Shown here: positions 36,687 through 45,771 of the stretch, piece after piece
How positions within the stretch are numbered: position 1 is the stretch's first letter
How the letters are laid out: each line of letters opens with the position of its first letter
IMG/VR virus record: IMGVR_UViG_3300021088_000010
Coordinates: 451 to 64,450 of that record
Reading direction: 5' to 3' (one strand)
Length of the DNA stretch: 64,000 bases
DNA from: a virus
Taxonomy: Duplodnaviria > Caudoviricetes
Position numbers and translations under genes: made by a program
Notes under the pieces: model-generated
The model's input: the letters and a program-made list of their open reading frames with translations, nothing else
What the model was told of the DNA's origin: nothing
The model's database searches: none

Positions 36687-36695
36687 GTTACTCCT

Positions 36696-36878
36696 TTAGG
36701 TTTGAATTCCTTTTTCGGGATTGCGGCGGGCTACTAAGCTGAACTCCACCTTCTCAGTCTCCACTCCACACACTTCACATAGGGGGTTATGGCGTTTTTC
36801 TAAATGGCCATTCCCTTGTACGTAGCGTTCGTACTTCGCACTGCATTTAGGGCAAACATAATCAAAGATAGGGCACAT
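36696..36878 (-). CDS. FmdB-like zinc ribbon protein
   Basis: PIFDYVCPKC...CEVCG. Confidence 0.7.
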   Translation of the reverse strand: MCPIFDYVCPKCSAKYERYVQGNGHLEKRHNPLCEVCGVETEKVEFSLVARRNPEKGIQT

Positions 36879-37228
36879 TATTCCTCCTGTCTTTCATAGG
36901 AATCACAGCATCCATCACAGCCATGTACCCACGTATATTCATCTGATAACTGTTTTGGGTCTAAGTGTCCTACAGTGTGCCCTATTCCGTGCTTGCAGAC
37001 TCTCTCCAACCTTCCGTCCTCTCGAACTAAATCATAGATAAAGTTAGGCTTCATCCGGGTCCTCCCATTCCAACGGAATAATCACAACTCTAATTCCCTG
37101 CCCAGCTAGTTTCCGCACCTGCCAGAAGAAACATTCATCACAGATAGGGAAAGAAATCTGCTTAGCTATAGGTCTAATACCACAGTTCCAGCACTTGTAT
37201 TTCTTTTCATGCGACCAAGTTCTCATTG

Positions 37229-37528
37229 CTACTTCTTTTCCTTGGCTTCCGTCTTTGCCTTCTCTGCGGCAGCCTTGACCCGTGCGTCGATGCTCTCCTC
37301 CGCGAGAAGCCTTCTCGTGAGATTCGCGATCTGCTCCTTTTCCCACGCTTCCTGCTCCGCTTGGGACGGTTGGTGCTCTTTTAGGAGAGTGTCCATAGTG
37401 TCGGCTAACTGCTTGTAGATTTCGACGACGTGTGCCGAAGATAGCCTCCCCAGAGTGATGGTTCTCTTCCAAGAGATAGTCTCCTCTTGGTTAGAAGAGT
37501 CGTTGCCCAAACTAAACGTGATCTGCAT
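37229..37528 (-). CDS. hypothetical protein
   Basis: AAGGAG RBS; helical. Confidence 0.6.
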   Translation of the reverse strand: MQITFSLGNDSSNQEETISWKRTITLGRLSSAHVVEIYKQLADTMDTLLKEHQPSQAEQEAWEKEQIANLTRRLLAEESIDARVKAAAEKAKTEAKEKK

Positions 37529-37539
37529 TTTTGCTCCTT

Positions 37540-39118: not shown

Positions 39119-39120
39119 AT

Positions 39121-39459
39121 CTATGCTATGCCTCCTGCTTGGGGTTGATTATTGTCAATCCTTTTCTGCCAATAAAGGGACCGATTCTTCCTAGTCCTGC
39201 GCGGCTCCTGAAATAAAGTCAAAGTATATCCATGAGGTAATTTCTTAGACACTACCCGTATCTTCTCAATCTTAGACATGCCCCCAAGTTTCATCATAAC
39301 TTTACCTAAGGCCATGTTGCTAGTTTGGGGATGCGTGAGAATTAACAATTCCTTCACAGCCTTTGAGCCAGTGGACATGACTCCACTTGGATGCTTAAGG
39401 ACAACTCTAAGACGAGTGCTCATACTTCCCCCCTCTTTAAGCCATGAGACTCTAGCCAT
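39121..39459 (-). CDS. hypothetical basic protein
   Basis: In operon; start probably at MSTRLR. Confidence 0.5.
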   Translation of the reverse strand: MARVSWLKEGGSMSTRLRVVLKHPSGVMSTGSKAVKELLILTHPQTSNMALGKVMMKLGGMSKIEKIRVVSKKLPHGYTLTLFQEPRRTRKNRSLYWQKRIDNNQPQAGGIA

Positions 39460-39644
39460 TCCTTGTATTTCTTACTTCCGTCTATACCTTCAAAATATCC
39501 TTTAGGATTTTCTTTGTAGGAAAAAGGTACTTCGCGTCTGATTAACTTACCTGGACAACGAGAGCAATAGTTAAGGGGATGAGAGAAAGCTGTTTGACAT
39601 AAAGGGCAAGCATAAACAACCCGTGTTCCAGTGATTTTAGTCAT
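39420..39644 (-). CDS. small zinc-finger protein
   Basis: CPLC...CSRC. Confidence 0.55.
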   Translation of the reverse strand: MTKITGTRVVYACPLCQTAFSHPLNYCSRCPGKLIRREVPFSYKENPKGYFEGIDGSKKYKEWLESHGLKRGEV

Positions 39645-40396: not shown

Positions 40397-41412
40397 TTAA
40401 CCCTCCTTTGATCTATAACTCGAATCTTACTTTCTTCTTTAGGTTGCCACAGCGAGCTACCACACCCCCCATTGCCAGTATCACAAGTGTACTGACTAAA
40501 GATACCATTAACAGGAATTAACCACTCCCTATCACACTTATAACAATAAGCAGGTTTCATCTTCCCATCACTACTAGCAGCCGGTTTCATCCTGTCATCC
40601 CACTTCTCTTGTCTCTTACTATATTCCTCATACGTCCTACGCCACGGTTCAGTATAGTCCCCTTGACAAATCTGGCATTCAACATGCGCTTCCAAGCCCT
40701 TAGGACCAATGATCCAAGCGGTATTATTAGCCATGTTAGCAAAGTCCACATCCGGCCTCTGTGCTTGAAACCACATGCCCATCCTCATAACAAATGGCCT
40801 GCAAGCCTTATGCAACGTGGTTTTCTCACTAGAAAAGAAGAAGAAGTCCTCATTACTTGCCAATGTCAGAGGATTCCCGCTACGAACCAGCAATAACTTA
40901 TCACGAAATTCGGGATGTACCCCTGCGATAGCCCCGCTACCACTAGCGCGAGCCAGAAATTTGATAGCCTCTTTGGTAAGTCCATACTTATCAACAATAG
41001 CTCGAATAATATCGGAATCCGTAGCTGCTTTCCTTTCAAGGTGCAGTATCTCAAATAGTTTATCATCATTCCGTATCACTCCGTTATGAATAATAGCTGA
41101 ACACCCCGCAAACATTGGGTGATTATTCTTATTATCTCGGGGATTACCCTGAGAGGCTCCGCGAGCATGTATCAACACGCTCCGACTGTCAGGCTTAAGG
41201 TAGTCCTTGATAAACTGCTCATACTCTTTAGATGTAACCAGCCTCCAGCCTGGAACATCTTTCTTGATAATATTTAACGAGCCGTCACTTTGTTGGATAC
41301 AAATTCCTGCACTATCGTTACCCCGGTGCTCATTACCGACTAGTAATATGCCGATTACTTCTTCGTTAATGGGCTTGTTGCCCCATCTAATACAGCCTGC
41401 TATGCCACAGAT
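40393..41412 (-). CDS. class II glutamine amidotransferase, apparent ATC start
   Basis: Frame is open upstream of the track start: (M)CGIAG...EHRGNDSAG...IHARGASQG...NNHP...HNGVI...TDSD. Confidence 0.88.
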   Translation of the reverse strand: MCGIAGCIRWGNKPINEEVIGILLVGNEHRGNDSAGICIQQSDGSLNIIKKDVPGWRLVTSKEYEQFIKDYLKPDSRSVLIHARGASQGNPRDNKNNHPMFAGCSAIIHNGVIRNDDKLFEILHLERKAATDSDIIRAIVDKYGLTKEAIKFLARASGSGAIAGVHPEFRDKLLLVRSGNPLTLASNEDFFFFSSEKTTLHKACRPFVMRMGMWFQAQRPDVDFANMANNTAWIIGPKGLEAHVECQICQGDYTEPWRRTYEEYSKRQEKWDDRMKPAASSDGKMKPAYCYKCDREWLIPVNGIFSQYTCDTGNGGCGSSLWQPKEESKIRVIDQRRVN

Positions 41413-41416
41413 ATAG

Positions 41417-43324: not shown

Positions 43325-43560
43325 TGATAGCTACCTCTCCATCTCCAATAAATCATCGCGTAGCTTTCTCCCGGTTCTTGGATTACATCAAATGTACCGT
43401 GTTTCGCACACTTATGTCGCCTACAATGAGACACAGAGCAAATAGATACAACTCCATCACAAGTCGGACACTTGGTATTCACAGACTCAATCCACTTGTG
43501 CTCTTTATGTCTATAGGGTTTCATAAAATATTTGGAAAGCCTGTGCTCCCAACAAGCCAC
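43321..43560 (-). CDS. small Cys/His-rich protein
   Basis: GGAGG RBS, GTG start; CPTC...CAKH. Confidence 0.5.
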   Translation of the reverse strand: MACWEHRLSKYFMKPYRHKEHKWIESVNTKCPTCDGVVSICSVSHCRRHKCAKHGTFDVIQEPGESYAMIYWRWRGSYQ

Positions 43561-43569
43561 AGGCTCCCT

Positions 43570-43866
43570 CCAATCGCCGCTCTGCTTTTGTTTTCAGGAC
43601 GTATTACGTTGATACGTTACAGAGTTAGGCTGCATTGGCCTGACGAATCAGGGCACTAGCTTATCACCTTACCCCTTGCGGGGGACCACGTACACTCCAC
43701 TTTAAGTGCTATACTCATTGGCTTGAGCTAGCAGGTGGGTGTAATATCATTGGCAGTAGCTAGTTAGGTCGAAGGGGAGCTTATGTCCTTACACCTAAAG
43801 TCCCTTCAGCTTCCCGTCAAGGCTTTCACCTTGACCGTATCGCTCCTTCGGTGGCTCTACTGCCAA
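43570..43866 (-). ncRNA. putative structured RNA region (two modules)
   Basis: UUGGCAGUAG/CUACUGCCAA closing stem; GUCAAGG-UGAAAG-CCUUGAC, CCCC-GCAA-GGGG and CCUGA-UUCG-UCAGG hairpins on the - strand. Confidence 0.6.
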
Positions 43867-44130: not shown

Positions 44131-44646
44131 TTACTCAACGTACCTAACCTCAAATCCAACCACCTTAGCATTTTGCCCCAGGTCCTTAAGCAAATACGTA
44201 ACTAGGTTTCCGCTCTTTCCGTTTCTAAAAGCAGGTGTGGCAACCCAACCTCTGTCCAACGCTTTGGTCCAAGGCTCTTCCTTCCATAGCATCTTACTAA
44301 AAGCCGGGACACATTGCGTCATAGCCACTGATCCAAAAGCCGCGTTCTTGGCCGCTACCTCAACAAACTCTACTATCTGATCGAATAGTTCATAAGACCA
44401 AGGCTTAACTTGGATGTACGATAGGACTAACACTGCACAGCACCCTGGCATTTGCTGGACTTGAAAGTTAGCTTTAAACTTCTTAGGTCCTATATGATCC
44501 CCCATCCAGCACTGTACCGGACTCCAATCATTCATACCCCAAGAGTGCTCTGGTTTACTATTAAACCAAAAACCACGTTCCTTGGCCAAGTCCCTAAGCA
44601 TGTCTGTGATATAGTTTTGGTGGTCAACTACTAAACGGCCCTTCAT
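44131..44646 (-). CDS. hypothetical protein
   Basis: Abuts the GGCT gene. Confidence 0.6.
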   Translation of the reverse strand: MKGRLVVDHQNYITDMLRDLAKERGFWFNSKPEHSWGMNDWSPVQCWMGDHIGPKKFKANFQVQQMPGCCAVLVLSYIQVKPWSYELFDQIVEFVEVAAKNAAFGSVAMTQCVPAFSKMLWKEEPWTKALDRGWVATPAFRNGKSGNLVTYLLKDLGQNAKVVGFEVRYVE

Positions 44647-45060
44647 TTAGAATCGTCCTCCCTCTATTTTGTCTGTGTACCTGAAATCTTTGAAACAGTG
44701 TTCATATACCCAAGCATCCACCACCTTATCCACAGCCTCTTGCTCATCCCACAGGCAGACAGGAACAATCTTCCGTGTGTAAACTCGCCCGTTTTGTTCT
44801 ATACCATCCAGCCAATCCCACAACTCATCTGGGATGTCCCACAACTCGCCGTAAGCTATCTCTTTGTCCCTTGTTAAGCGAAGTCCTACTCCGCGAAATT
44901 TACCACCCCCAATGGGTCCTATGCCAAAGAGACTTGCACCTTCAATGTAACATTCCCCCAAGAATTCGGCATCGTAGTTGGTCAAGTCAAGTTCAAGTCC
45001 CCTTTTAAGGATTCCATATGTCATGAGCTTTTTGTTTTCCATAGGATTCATATACCCCAT
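44647..45060 (-). CDS. gamma-glutamylcyclotransferase (AIG2-like)
   Basis: TYGILKRG, GELWDI, LDGIE...YTR, AWVY; start may be the ATG at 45042. Confidence 0.85.
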   Translation of the reverse strand: MGYMNPMENKKLMTYGILKRGLELDLTNYDAEFLGECYIEGASLFGIGPIGGGKFRGVGLRLTRDKEIAYGELWDIPDELWDWLDGIEQNGRVYTRKIVPVCLWDEQEAVDKVVDAWVYEHCFKDFRYTDKIEGGRF

Positions 45061-45360
45061 CTAATCGAGGAACAATGTGTCCAGGTCTGACCGATATATC
45101 CAATCCACCTACCAAACCGCTTCAGCCTGTAGGGTCCATTCAAGCATTACGACTCTTTATGAGTGCTAGGGCTAAGCCCGTGGACTTTAGGAGCCTCTCA
45201 ATGGTACAGCTGTCGCTATAAATTTAGCTTCCTGACTGGCAACCAGCAATGACTAGATGCGAAAAGGTTTACCCTCCTCCCAGCCCGTACAGGGCCGCTG
45301 CTATCCCGTCATCTTCAGAGCGCGTTACATGCCTTTTAGATGGGGTATATCAATCCTATG
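45040..45360 (-). ncRNA. putative ~320-nt structured RNA bounded by a 25-bp inverted repeat
   Basis: 45040-45064 and 45336-45360 are reverse complements at 24 of 25 positions; many internal stems; no convincing ORF. Confidence 0.6.
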
Positions 45361-45514
45361 TTATTGGCGTATCCAACTCGTACTCAGTAATACTTTTCTT
45401 CCCGTGAAACTTGATGTTTTCGGCTGCTTCTTCAGCTTTTTCTTCGGAGGAGAAGATACCTTCGATAAATGTATCCTCATAAGGTATAAAATCCTCCAAC
45501 AGATACACTTTCAT
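45356..45514 (-). CDS. small acidic protein (52 aa, below the ORF-track cut-off)
   Basis: Translated by hand: MKVYLLEDFIPYEDTFIEGIFSSEEKAEEAAE...; GGAGG RBS; ATGA overlap with the upstream gene. Confidence 0.65.
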   Translation of the reverse strand: MKVYLLEDFIPYEDTFIEGIFSSEEKAEEAAENIKFHGKKSITEYELDTPIT

Positions 45515-45771
45515 TTTGTGGCCTCCAGTACTCTCTTACCACACTCATAACTCCCACAAATACTAACATCGTTAAGCTTACGGATTCCTGGGCGTCCACA
45601 TCGGCACATAACTTCTGTATTTAATACACCCCGCCCACCACAATAAGAGCAAGGTGGATTGCTAACCCGTGCGTGAACATTATTGGGCTCATGGCCCAGA
45701 CACATCGGACATTTTTTGAGTGCCATTATTCTTCCCAACGACTCCAAGGCTGTCCCGCATTTGGTATCCAC
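45511..45771 (-). CDS. Cys-rich zinc-finger protein
   Basis: CPMC, CSYCGGRG, CRCG; likely start MALKKC. Confidence 0.55.
   Translation of the reverse strand: MDTKCGTALESLGRIMALKKCPMCLGHEPNNVHARVSNPPCSYCGGRGVLNTEVMCRCGRPGIRKLNDVSICGSYECGKRVLEATK

Follow-up and report, generated by a model that had tools for sequence, protein, structure and literature searches.

A conserved structured RNA of about 320 nt, matching no known family, within a peptide-ligase operon of uncultured soil phages

A 24/25-bp inverted repeat inside a peptide-ligase gene cluster of a tailed phage was identified as the closing helix (P1) of a conserved, intricately folded RNA of roughly 320 nt, which is kept at one fixed spot by a group of uncultured soil phages, matches no known RNA family and has no known function. 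The sequence analysed (the window) comprises 64,000 nt, positions 451 to 64,450 of IMG/VR record IMGVR_UViG_3300021088_000010, and is almost the whole of this 64,450-base record, which CheckV rates as 100% complete and which encodes the portal, major head protein, terminase and DNA polymerase of a tailed phage. All local genes lie on the minus strand, in the order COOH-NH2 ligase (344 aa), an 86-aa Cys-rich zinc-ribbon protein, DUF7336 (52 aa), the RNA element, GGACT, proteins of 171, 72 and 165 aa, a second COOH-NH2 ligase (469 aa), a class-II glutamine amidotransferase and a RimK-like ATP-grasp enzyme. The 171-aa protein looks GNAT-like by language-model features (0.93) and by the Atlas's own model (TM about 0.52), although this can only be taken as a lead. 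A gap at 41179-41416 that looked non-coding was found to encode the N-terminus of the amidotransferase. The coordinates of the element and its neighbours are given in Table 1.

Table 1. Positions of the structured RNA, its parts and adjacent features in the window (all on the minus strand)
Feature	Coordinates	Description and support
RNA-1, whole element	45040-45360	321 nt; RNA position 1 = 45360, position 321 = 45040; covariance model R1 hits 45025-45366 at 272.6 bits, E 5.7e-73, the only hit in the window; comparative model of 101 pairs, all canonical, -103.3 kcal/mol against an unconstrained minimum of -119.4 kcal/mol
P1, 5' arm	45336-45360	Contains the stop codon TAG (45356-45358) of the 52-aa DUF7336 gene; all 12 pairs of the modelled inner part (helix 1) show compensatory changes across 28 aligned rows, 97.9% paired; the outer part lies outside the model's pairs, and its complementarity in relatives was read by eye from the alignment
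P1, 3' arm	45040-45064	Last three bases (45040-45042) are the ATG that most probably starts the GGACT gene (MENKKL...); ATGs at 45058-45060 and 45049-45051 also lie in the arm; only 2 of 37 GGACT homologues carry the MGYMNP extension encoded by the arm
P2, P2a, P3, 5' strands	45315-45334	Conserved internal-loop motif ..AUGUAACGC.. (invariant loop nucleotides ..AACGC..); ACGC invariant in 16 of 16 aligned members
P3, P2a, P2, 3' strands	45068-45090	Conserved motif ..UGGACACA.. (invariant loop nucleotides ..GGACACA..)
5' domain (P4, P4a, P5a, P5b)	45248-45313	Most conserved part; hairpins P5a (CGGCCC-UGUAC-GGGCUG, stem sequence barely varies) and P5b (G-U-rich)
Middle (long) arm, P6a-P9	45091-45247	P6d (with a bulged G) and P7 covary; P6b and P6c moderately supported; P6a and P8 seen only by eye, with register shifts between sequences; mostly deleted in the 213-nt relative L017
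Upstream gene, DUF7336, 52 aa	45356-45514	Pfam PF24024, E 1.5e-13; lies between the zinc-ribbon gene and the RNA in this lineage, seen next to the RNA only in the window and in locus L012
Zinc-ribbon gene, 86 aa	45511-45771	8 invariant Cys; constant upstream neighbour of the RNA in relatives
GGACT / AIG2-like gamma-glutamyl cyclotransferase gene	44647-45042	Pfam PF06094, E 1.8e-08; read from the start codon supported by an alignment of 37 homologues
RNA-2	about 43525-43770	Second, unrelated covarying RNA, between the 72-aa gene and a 79-aa Cys-rich ORF

The original prediction of a 24/25 inverted repeat whose two arms carry a stop and a start codon is confirmed by this analysis. The 25-nt arms are 96% complementary with 271 nt between them, and among inverted repeats of 18 nt or more lying within 600 nt, only three were found over the whole window, the other two being 78-79% complementary. 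The 18-nt arm core, allowing up to 3 mismatches, occurs only at the two arms, against 0.10 matches expected from shuffles, and 0 of 100 shuffles gave 2. The minus strand of the element folds to -119.4 kcal/mol (z -4.69) and the plus strand to -101.7 kcal/mol (z -3.60). A match to an Rfam family had been named beforehand as evidence against novelty, and none was found: there were 0 matches at gathering score amongst the 4227 models of Rfam 15 in the window, and only 4 sub-threshold, chance-level matches in 44900-45500 (E 1.7-8, 10.5-15.3 bits against gathering scores of 42-70). ARAGORN found 0 tRNA or tmRNA genes in the window. Literature searches on phage COOH-NH2 ligases and amidoligases, on novel covarying RNAs of phages and soil metagenomes, and on RNA motifs associated with AIG2 found no description of the element (PMC4431377; PMC3890496; PMC11945000; PMC6209634; PMC2938197; PMC9226505; PMC11494293), although it may be listed amongst the 10,006 candidate viral structured RNAs obtained by screening IMG/VR (PMC10690425), the supplements of which were not examined.

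Relatives of the locus were not readily found. A blastn search of the 1.2-kb region against 50,697 phage records gave no match, and single-protein searches of IMG/VR with GGACT and with the 344-aa ligase found nothing. A search with GGACT nevertheless gave 37 homologues, the alignment of which retrieved 5 IMG/VR loci and 64 metagenome loci (designated here by L numbers). The element was then found by blastn and nhmmer in many of these loci, always upstream of GGACT and on its strand, with the strongest conservation in element positions of about 23-136. The gene order is conserved as ligase, zinc-ribbon, element, variable small genes, GGACT, p171, p72, p165 and ligase. A covariance model of the element (R1) was searched over 63 sources (277,933 bases), from which seven duplicate loci and L001-L006 were left out, giving 28 matches at E of 1 or less. 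Of these, 24 have E of 2.6e-07 or better and all but one artefact are on the gene strand, 2 are weak hits in the syntenic slot (L046, L068) and 2 are weak reverse-strand echoes of true hits.

With filters off, R1 also gave weak hits of 7.6-25 bits in the same slot and on the same strand of more distant loci. A model of the 5' domain alone (R2), built from 16 diverse members and searched over 16 such loci, gave 14 hits at E of 1 or less, of which 13 are in the slot on the gene strand and one, at E 0.67, is elsewhere. Each slot hit has its own closing stem and a GGAUAC-type 3' motif. As a specificity control, R2 gave 1 hit at E of 1 or less in 48,654 bases of related phage DNA lacking the slot. 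A divergent 8-Cys zinc-ribbon ORF always lies between the ligase and the RNA, and out of the 31 non-redundant loci (window included) that contain this gene, 29 have a model hit; the other two, L022 and L064, show only the two characteristic hairpins by eye. Three cultured phages with distant ligase homologues, namely Pseudoalteromonas phage Slicky01, a Bruynoghevirus and Escherichia phage EP335, lack the RNA, as neither model hit within 6 kb on either side of the ligase, so that no laboratory system is at hand. A pattern scan of genome contigs used a motif gap of 24-34 instead of the correct gap of about 21, and its 6 hits were negative with the model, while a pattern with the correct gap and a 3' motif found 0 in IMG/VR; host and prophage copies were therefore not sought.

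Covariation, the absence of which, together with the absence of a discrete RNA, had been set in advance as a ground for rejecting the RNA, is strong. A MAFFT alignment of 9 sequences gave an RNAalifold structure of 58 pairs, 30 of them with compensatory changes. Counted independently, 96.4% of cells pair, against 35.4-42.5% when partners are slid by 1-3 columns, and 31 of 58 pairs carry changes on both sides, against 7-10 for the slid controls; 0 of 500 shuffles reach any observed measure. On the alignment fitted to the model, 94.5% of cells pair and 48 of 58 pairs have both-side changes, although such an alignment leans towards the structure. Frequent and in some cases invariant G-U pairs (for example column 80-94, GU in 9 of 9, and the whole of helix 7) would be C-A on the other strand, which places the RNA on the gene strand. 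Every frame has at least 2 stops in 19 of 19 members, so the element does not code.

The family is about 285-360 nt long, with one 213-nt deletion variant (L017), and its fold has a three-way junction and roughly 100 base pairs, in which P1, P2 and P3 stack and carry invariant internal-loop nucleotides, one arm being the 5' domain with two hairpins and the other a long irregular arm. Of the five interior helices first proposed by eye, GAUGAC/GUCAUU (P4) and CAGCUGUA/UACAGGCUG (P6d) are backed by comparative data. GGCCC/GGGCU (P5a) is predicted and pairs in every sequence, but 5 of its 6 pairs never vary and it carries almost no covariation. The GGGC-UUA-GCCC hairpin is supported only by eye, whereas GUCCA/UGGAC competes with a covarying helix, CCAUUGAG/UUGAAUGG (P7), and is not supported by relatives. 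In the long arm, RNAalifold on MAFFT alignments recovered only P7. With a hand-given structure realigned using a further model (R3), 67.8% of cells are paired against 37-41% for slid controls, P6d and P7 (helices 4 and 5) reaching 84% and 80%, while P6a and P8 are not supported as aligned (35-36% paired).

The base of P1 is conserved as 5'-C-R-U-A-G ... C-U-A-U-G-3'. The upstream ORF stops within -8 to +10 nt of the P1 5' base in 15 of the 16 members that have an upstream ORF, often using the conserved UAG itself, and the AUG at the 3' base opens an ORF of 47-155 aa (GGACT, a GNAT-like gene or a small ORF) in 11 of 20 members. P1 pairs the upstream stop with the start of the next gene, and none of the 10 such starts scored has a Shine-Dalgarno (SD)-like 4-mer, compared with 5 of 7 starts lying 11-30 nt beyond P1 and a window baseline of 19 of 35, although this contrast rests on related sequences that are not independent. 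In the other 9 of 20 members the downstream gene starts beyond P1 or the P1-base AUG opens only a 15-22-aa ORF, so coupling through P1 is not universal. Gene callers have translated the 3' part of the RNA as N-terminal extensions of GGACT proteins in public databases.

No promoter-like or terminator-like site was found beside the element on the minus strand. Thirteen soil-metagenome runs hold parts of the 1.6-kb stretch, two of which are metatranscriptomes. The absence of a discrete RNA had been the other part of that ground for rejection; two RNA-library contigs from two studies lie wholly inside the element, 236 nt at 45099-45333 with 5 differences and 211 nt at 45122-45332 with 0 differences. 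These Logan contigs show presence only and not strand, ends or level, DNA may be present in such libraries, and no experiment or read-end data show a discrete RNA or cleavage in P1. A third RNA-library contig, from a relative, covers the 5' end of GGACT plus the P1 3' arm (44929-45071), so the flank is not absent from RNA libraries, although they have no other contig over the flanking genes. None of the four runs aligned has a contig across 45334-45425, and since no DNA contig spans 45332/45333, where both interior RNA contigs stop, neither the missing cover nor the shared end can be read as an RNA end or as a low mRNA level.

A DNA-level element, such as a MITE or other inserted mobile element, an invertible segment, or a recombination or replication site, is contradicted by these data and is considered very unlikely; the first two had been offered originally as less likely options. 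The element does have terminal inverted repeats, and a TA dinucleotide flanks a 21-bp version of the repeat; this flank was seen by eye only and does not settle whether a target site was duplicated. Removing the element would leave the upstream ORF without its stop codon. However, the element is a single copy in the complete phage genome, although no host genome was searched, and all relatives carry it in the same slot and orientation. The arms differ in sequence between relatives yet stay complementary, including G-U pairs valid on one strand only. The arm core occurs elsewhere in IMG/VR only as 3 single matches without the second arm, which encode the same short peptide as the arm (by eye) and look like chance matches. 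The only inverted copy, in L072, lies in a contig that is a palindrome over its whole length, an assembly artefact. No inversion joint appears in two DNA runs, though their contigs are fragmentary there, and no recombinase family was found amongst the 10 neighbouring ORFs scanned with Pfam, the rest of the genome not being scanned for one.

The leading interpretation in the original prediction, a novel large structured RNA on the minus strand with no known family, is supported, and its alternative of a cis-regulator occluding the GGACT start gains comparative support. What the analysis itself demonstrates is the conserved, covarying, non-coding RNA, its gene-strand position at a fixed slot after the zinc-ribbon gene, its fold, and the pairing by P1 of the upstream stop with an SD-less start; the following steps are inferred and, taken together, are held with only moderate confidence. 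In this view the RNA, having no promoter or terminator of its own, is transcribed as part of the operon mRNA, and the next gene can be translated only when a ribosome finishing the upstream gene opens P1, or after the stem is cut; dependence of downstream on upstream translation was not measured. As 20-25 bp of near-perfect double-stranded RNA in the window and its closest relatives, P1 is the kind of substrate that RNase III cuts, and cutting would release the roughly 270-nt core as a stable RNA. Such excision, already suggested originally, is inferred from the length of the stem without cleavage having been assayed, and in distant members P1 is only about 10-14 bp, which is short for an RNase III site. 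What the released core does is not known; the best guess is that it binds a protein of the module, with the adjacent zinc-ribbon protein as first candidate, although the AlphaFold model of the latter (pLDDT 77.7) has no PDB match at E of 0.001 or better, and nothing here shows that it binds RNA.

A less likely possibility is that the RNA is never released and acts purely in cis, as a sensor or as the binding site of an autoregulatory protein such as the zinc-ribbon protein, setting how much of the downstream cistrons is translated. Its fixed position exactly at a gene junction, the lack of its own promoter or terminator, the SD-less start within P1 and the constant adjacency to the zinc-ribbon gene would be consistent with this. 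On the other hand, about 100 base pairs, more than 10 helices and invariant junction nucleotides are far more than occlusion of one start codon needs, the downstream gene differs between loci, and a 25-bp P1 is inferred to be too stable to switch by ligand binding. Such a P1 is also unlike the short switching helices of known riboswitches; alternative pairings were not sought.

It is also possible, but unlikely, that the RNA is a trans-acting catalytic or cofactor RNA of the ligase module (a ribozyme, a carrier or scaffold RNA, or an RNP with the zinc-ribbon protein), with P1 serving only as a processing and stabilising stem and the stop/start overlap a by-product of genome compaction. The size, complex fold and invariant junction nucleotides, the presence in nearly every ligase cluster of this phage clade and the GNAT-like protein of the cluster, itself only a lead, speak for this. 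Some GNAT-fold peptide ligases use RNA-borne (aminoacyl-tRNA) substrates, a point that was not tested here. However, there is no similarity to any known ribozyme, tRNA or tmRNA, no biochemical evidence exists, and the SD-less starts argue that P1 is not merely a processing stem. In its boldest and improbable form, a new class of large catalytic or substrate-carrying RNA would work as an RNP with the zinc-ribbon protein, the operon would be an RNA-dependent amide-bond-forming system, and ribosomes would in addition pass from the upstream stop codon to the SD-less AUG across a 270-nt folded insert. The operon also carries RNA-2, about 1.3 kb downstream, which is conserved in 13 loci (12 if L009 and its duplicate L031 count once) with stops in all frames. 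It has 47 pairs, 28 of them compensatory, with 93.2% of cells paired against 37-43% for slid controls, a value reached by 0 of 500 shuffles. It has no Rfam match and ends in a hairpin plus a U-rich tract just before the next AUG.

Large RNAs with complex folds and invariant junction nucleotides are rare, and the known ones have mostly turned out to be ribozymes, riboswitches or RNP scaffolds. The present RNA is strongly supported by covariation, matches no curated family and is tied to a poorly understood phage enzyme module whose substrates are unknown, while its closing stem gives a directly testable case of translation being handed across a long folded insert.

Several known systems share part of this organisation. 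In rRNA precursors and at processing sites of phage T7 early mRNA, RNAs are excised from longer transcripts by RNase III at a long stem formed by their flanks, and here too the flanks form about 25 bp of near-perfect double-stranded RNA around a folded core between operon genes; the core, however, matches no rRNA, tRNA or other known RNA, and the stem also carries a stop and a start codon. In RNA phage MS2, the start of a downstream cistron is masked by pairing with upstream coding sequence and opened by the translating ribosome, and in cauliflower mosaic virus ribosomes shunt over a stem. The pairing of the upstream stop with the downstream SD-less AUG is comparable, but about 270 nt of conserved, independently folded RNA lies between the two partners. 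MITEs have a similar size and terminal inverted repeats, from which the present element differs in its single copy, fixed orthologous site and compensatory evolution of arms and interior. GOLLD and ROOL, both Rfam families, are likewise large structured RNAs of unknown function found in phages and prophages, and the present RNA is similarly multi-helix and strongly covarying; it is, however, smaller, is embedded between protein genes of an enzyme operon rather than standing alone, and is closed by a long stem that overlaps the neighbouring ORFs.

The small zinc-ribbon protein family, represented in the window and in its relatives, has eight invariant cysteines (CPxC...CxxC...CxCGR...C....C) and always lies just upstream of the structured RNA. 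Its AlphaFold model (pLDDT 77.7) showed no fold match in the PDB. In one distant relative, the locus L075, an extra Cys-rich ORF with an HNH-like look, as judged by eye, is located between the zinc-ribbon gene and the RNA. A natural 213-nt variant of the RNA was found in the relative L017, where P1-P5 and the 3' strands are kept but most of the middle arm is lacking. The metagenome contig L072 was found to be an inverted duplication of itself around position 2290, with many small differences between the two halves; this is an assembly or amplification artefact and it produced a spurious second, inverted copy of the RNA.

On the downstream side, public gene calls extend GGACT proteins (P0006, P0010, P0017 and P0019) upstream into the RNA. 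The extension reads MGYMNP in the window, while in relatives it reads ...GHNPAMRRLVK..., which is a translation of the conserved 3' motif of the RNA, and these N-terminal extensions are probably annotation artefacts. The 171-aa protein gave no match to Pfam or PHROG, but it resembles GNAT acetyltransferases by language-model features (0.93) and by structure (TM about 0.52). Some relatives (the loci L013, L028, L029 and L022) carry an extra GNAT-like ORF directly after the RNA. The junction of the 171-aa gene and the end of the GGACT gene is a variable segment among close relatives; a DNA contig of one sequencing run (X3) replaces 183 bases at this site with 164 other bases.

Further along the operon, the class-II amidotransferase starts at 41178 in the ORF list, whereas its conserved N-terminus (..YICGIAGC..) continues in frame upstream, with no ATG, GTG or TTG before the catalytic Cys, which points to a non-canonical start codon or a sequencing issue. 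Two further long stretches of the same operon, neither of which was examined for coding or structure, have no ORF in the gene list used here, and the 3' part of the first is conserved in eight loci.

Coordinates of the additional features in the window and in related loci
Feature	Sequence	Coordinates	Strand
Second structured RNA candidate	window	43525-43770	minus
N-terminal extension of GGACT called into the RNA	window	45043-45060	
In-frame upstream continuation of the class-II amidotransferase	window	41179-41416	minus
171-aa GNAT-like protein	window	44131-44646	minus
Zinc-ribbon protein	window	45511-45771	minus
Inverted duplication	L072	1-5095	
213-nt variant of the RNA	L017	1253-1465	
Extra Cys-rich ORF	L075	1409-1792	
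Variable segment	window	44467-44651	
First stretch without a listed ORF	window	36687-37539	
Second stretch without a listed ORF	window	39119-39640	

A second structured RNA candidate, not of the same family, lies in the same operon between the 72-aa gene and a 79-aa Cys-rich ORF. It is conserved in 13 loci (12 if L009 and its duplicate L031 are counted once) and has no Rfam match. Of its 47 predicted pairs, 28 are compensatory, and 93.2% of cells pair against 37-43% for slid controls, a value reached by 0 of 500 shuffles. Its last hairpin is followed by a U-rich tract and the next start codon, an arrangement which looks like a terminator or attenuator, and the candidate could be a riboswitch-like leader.
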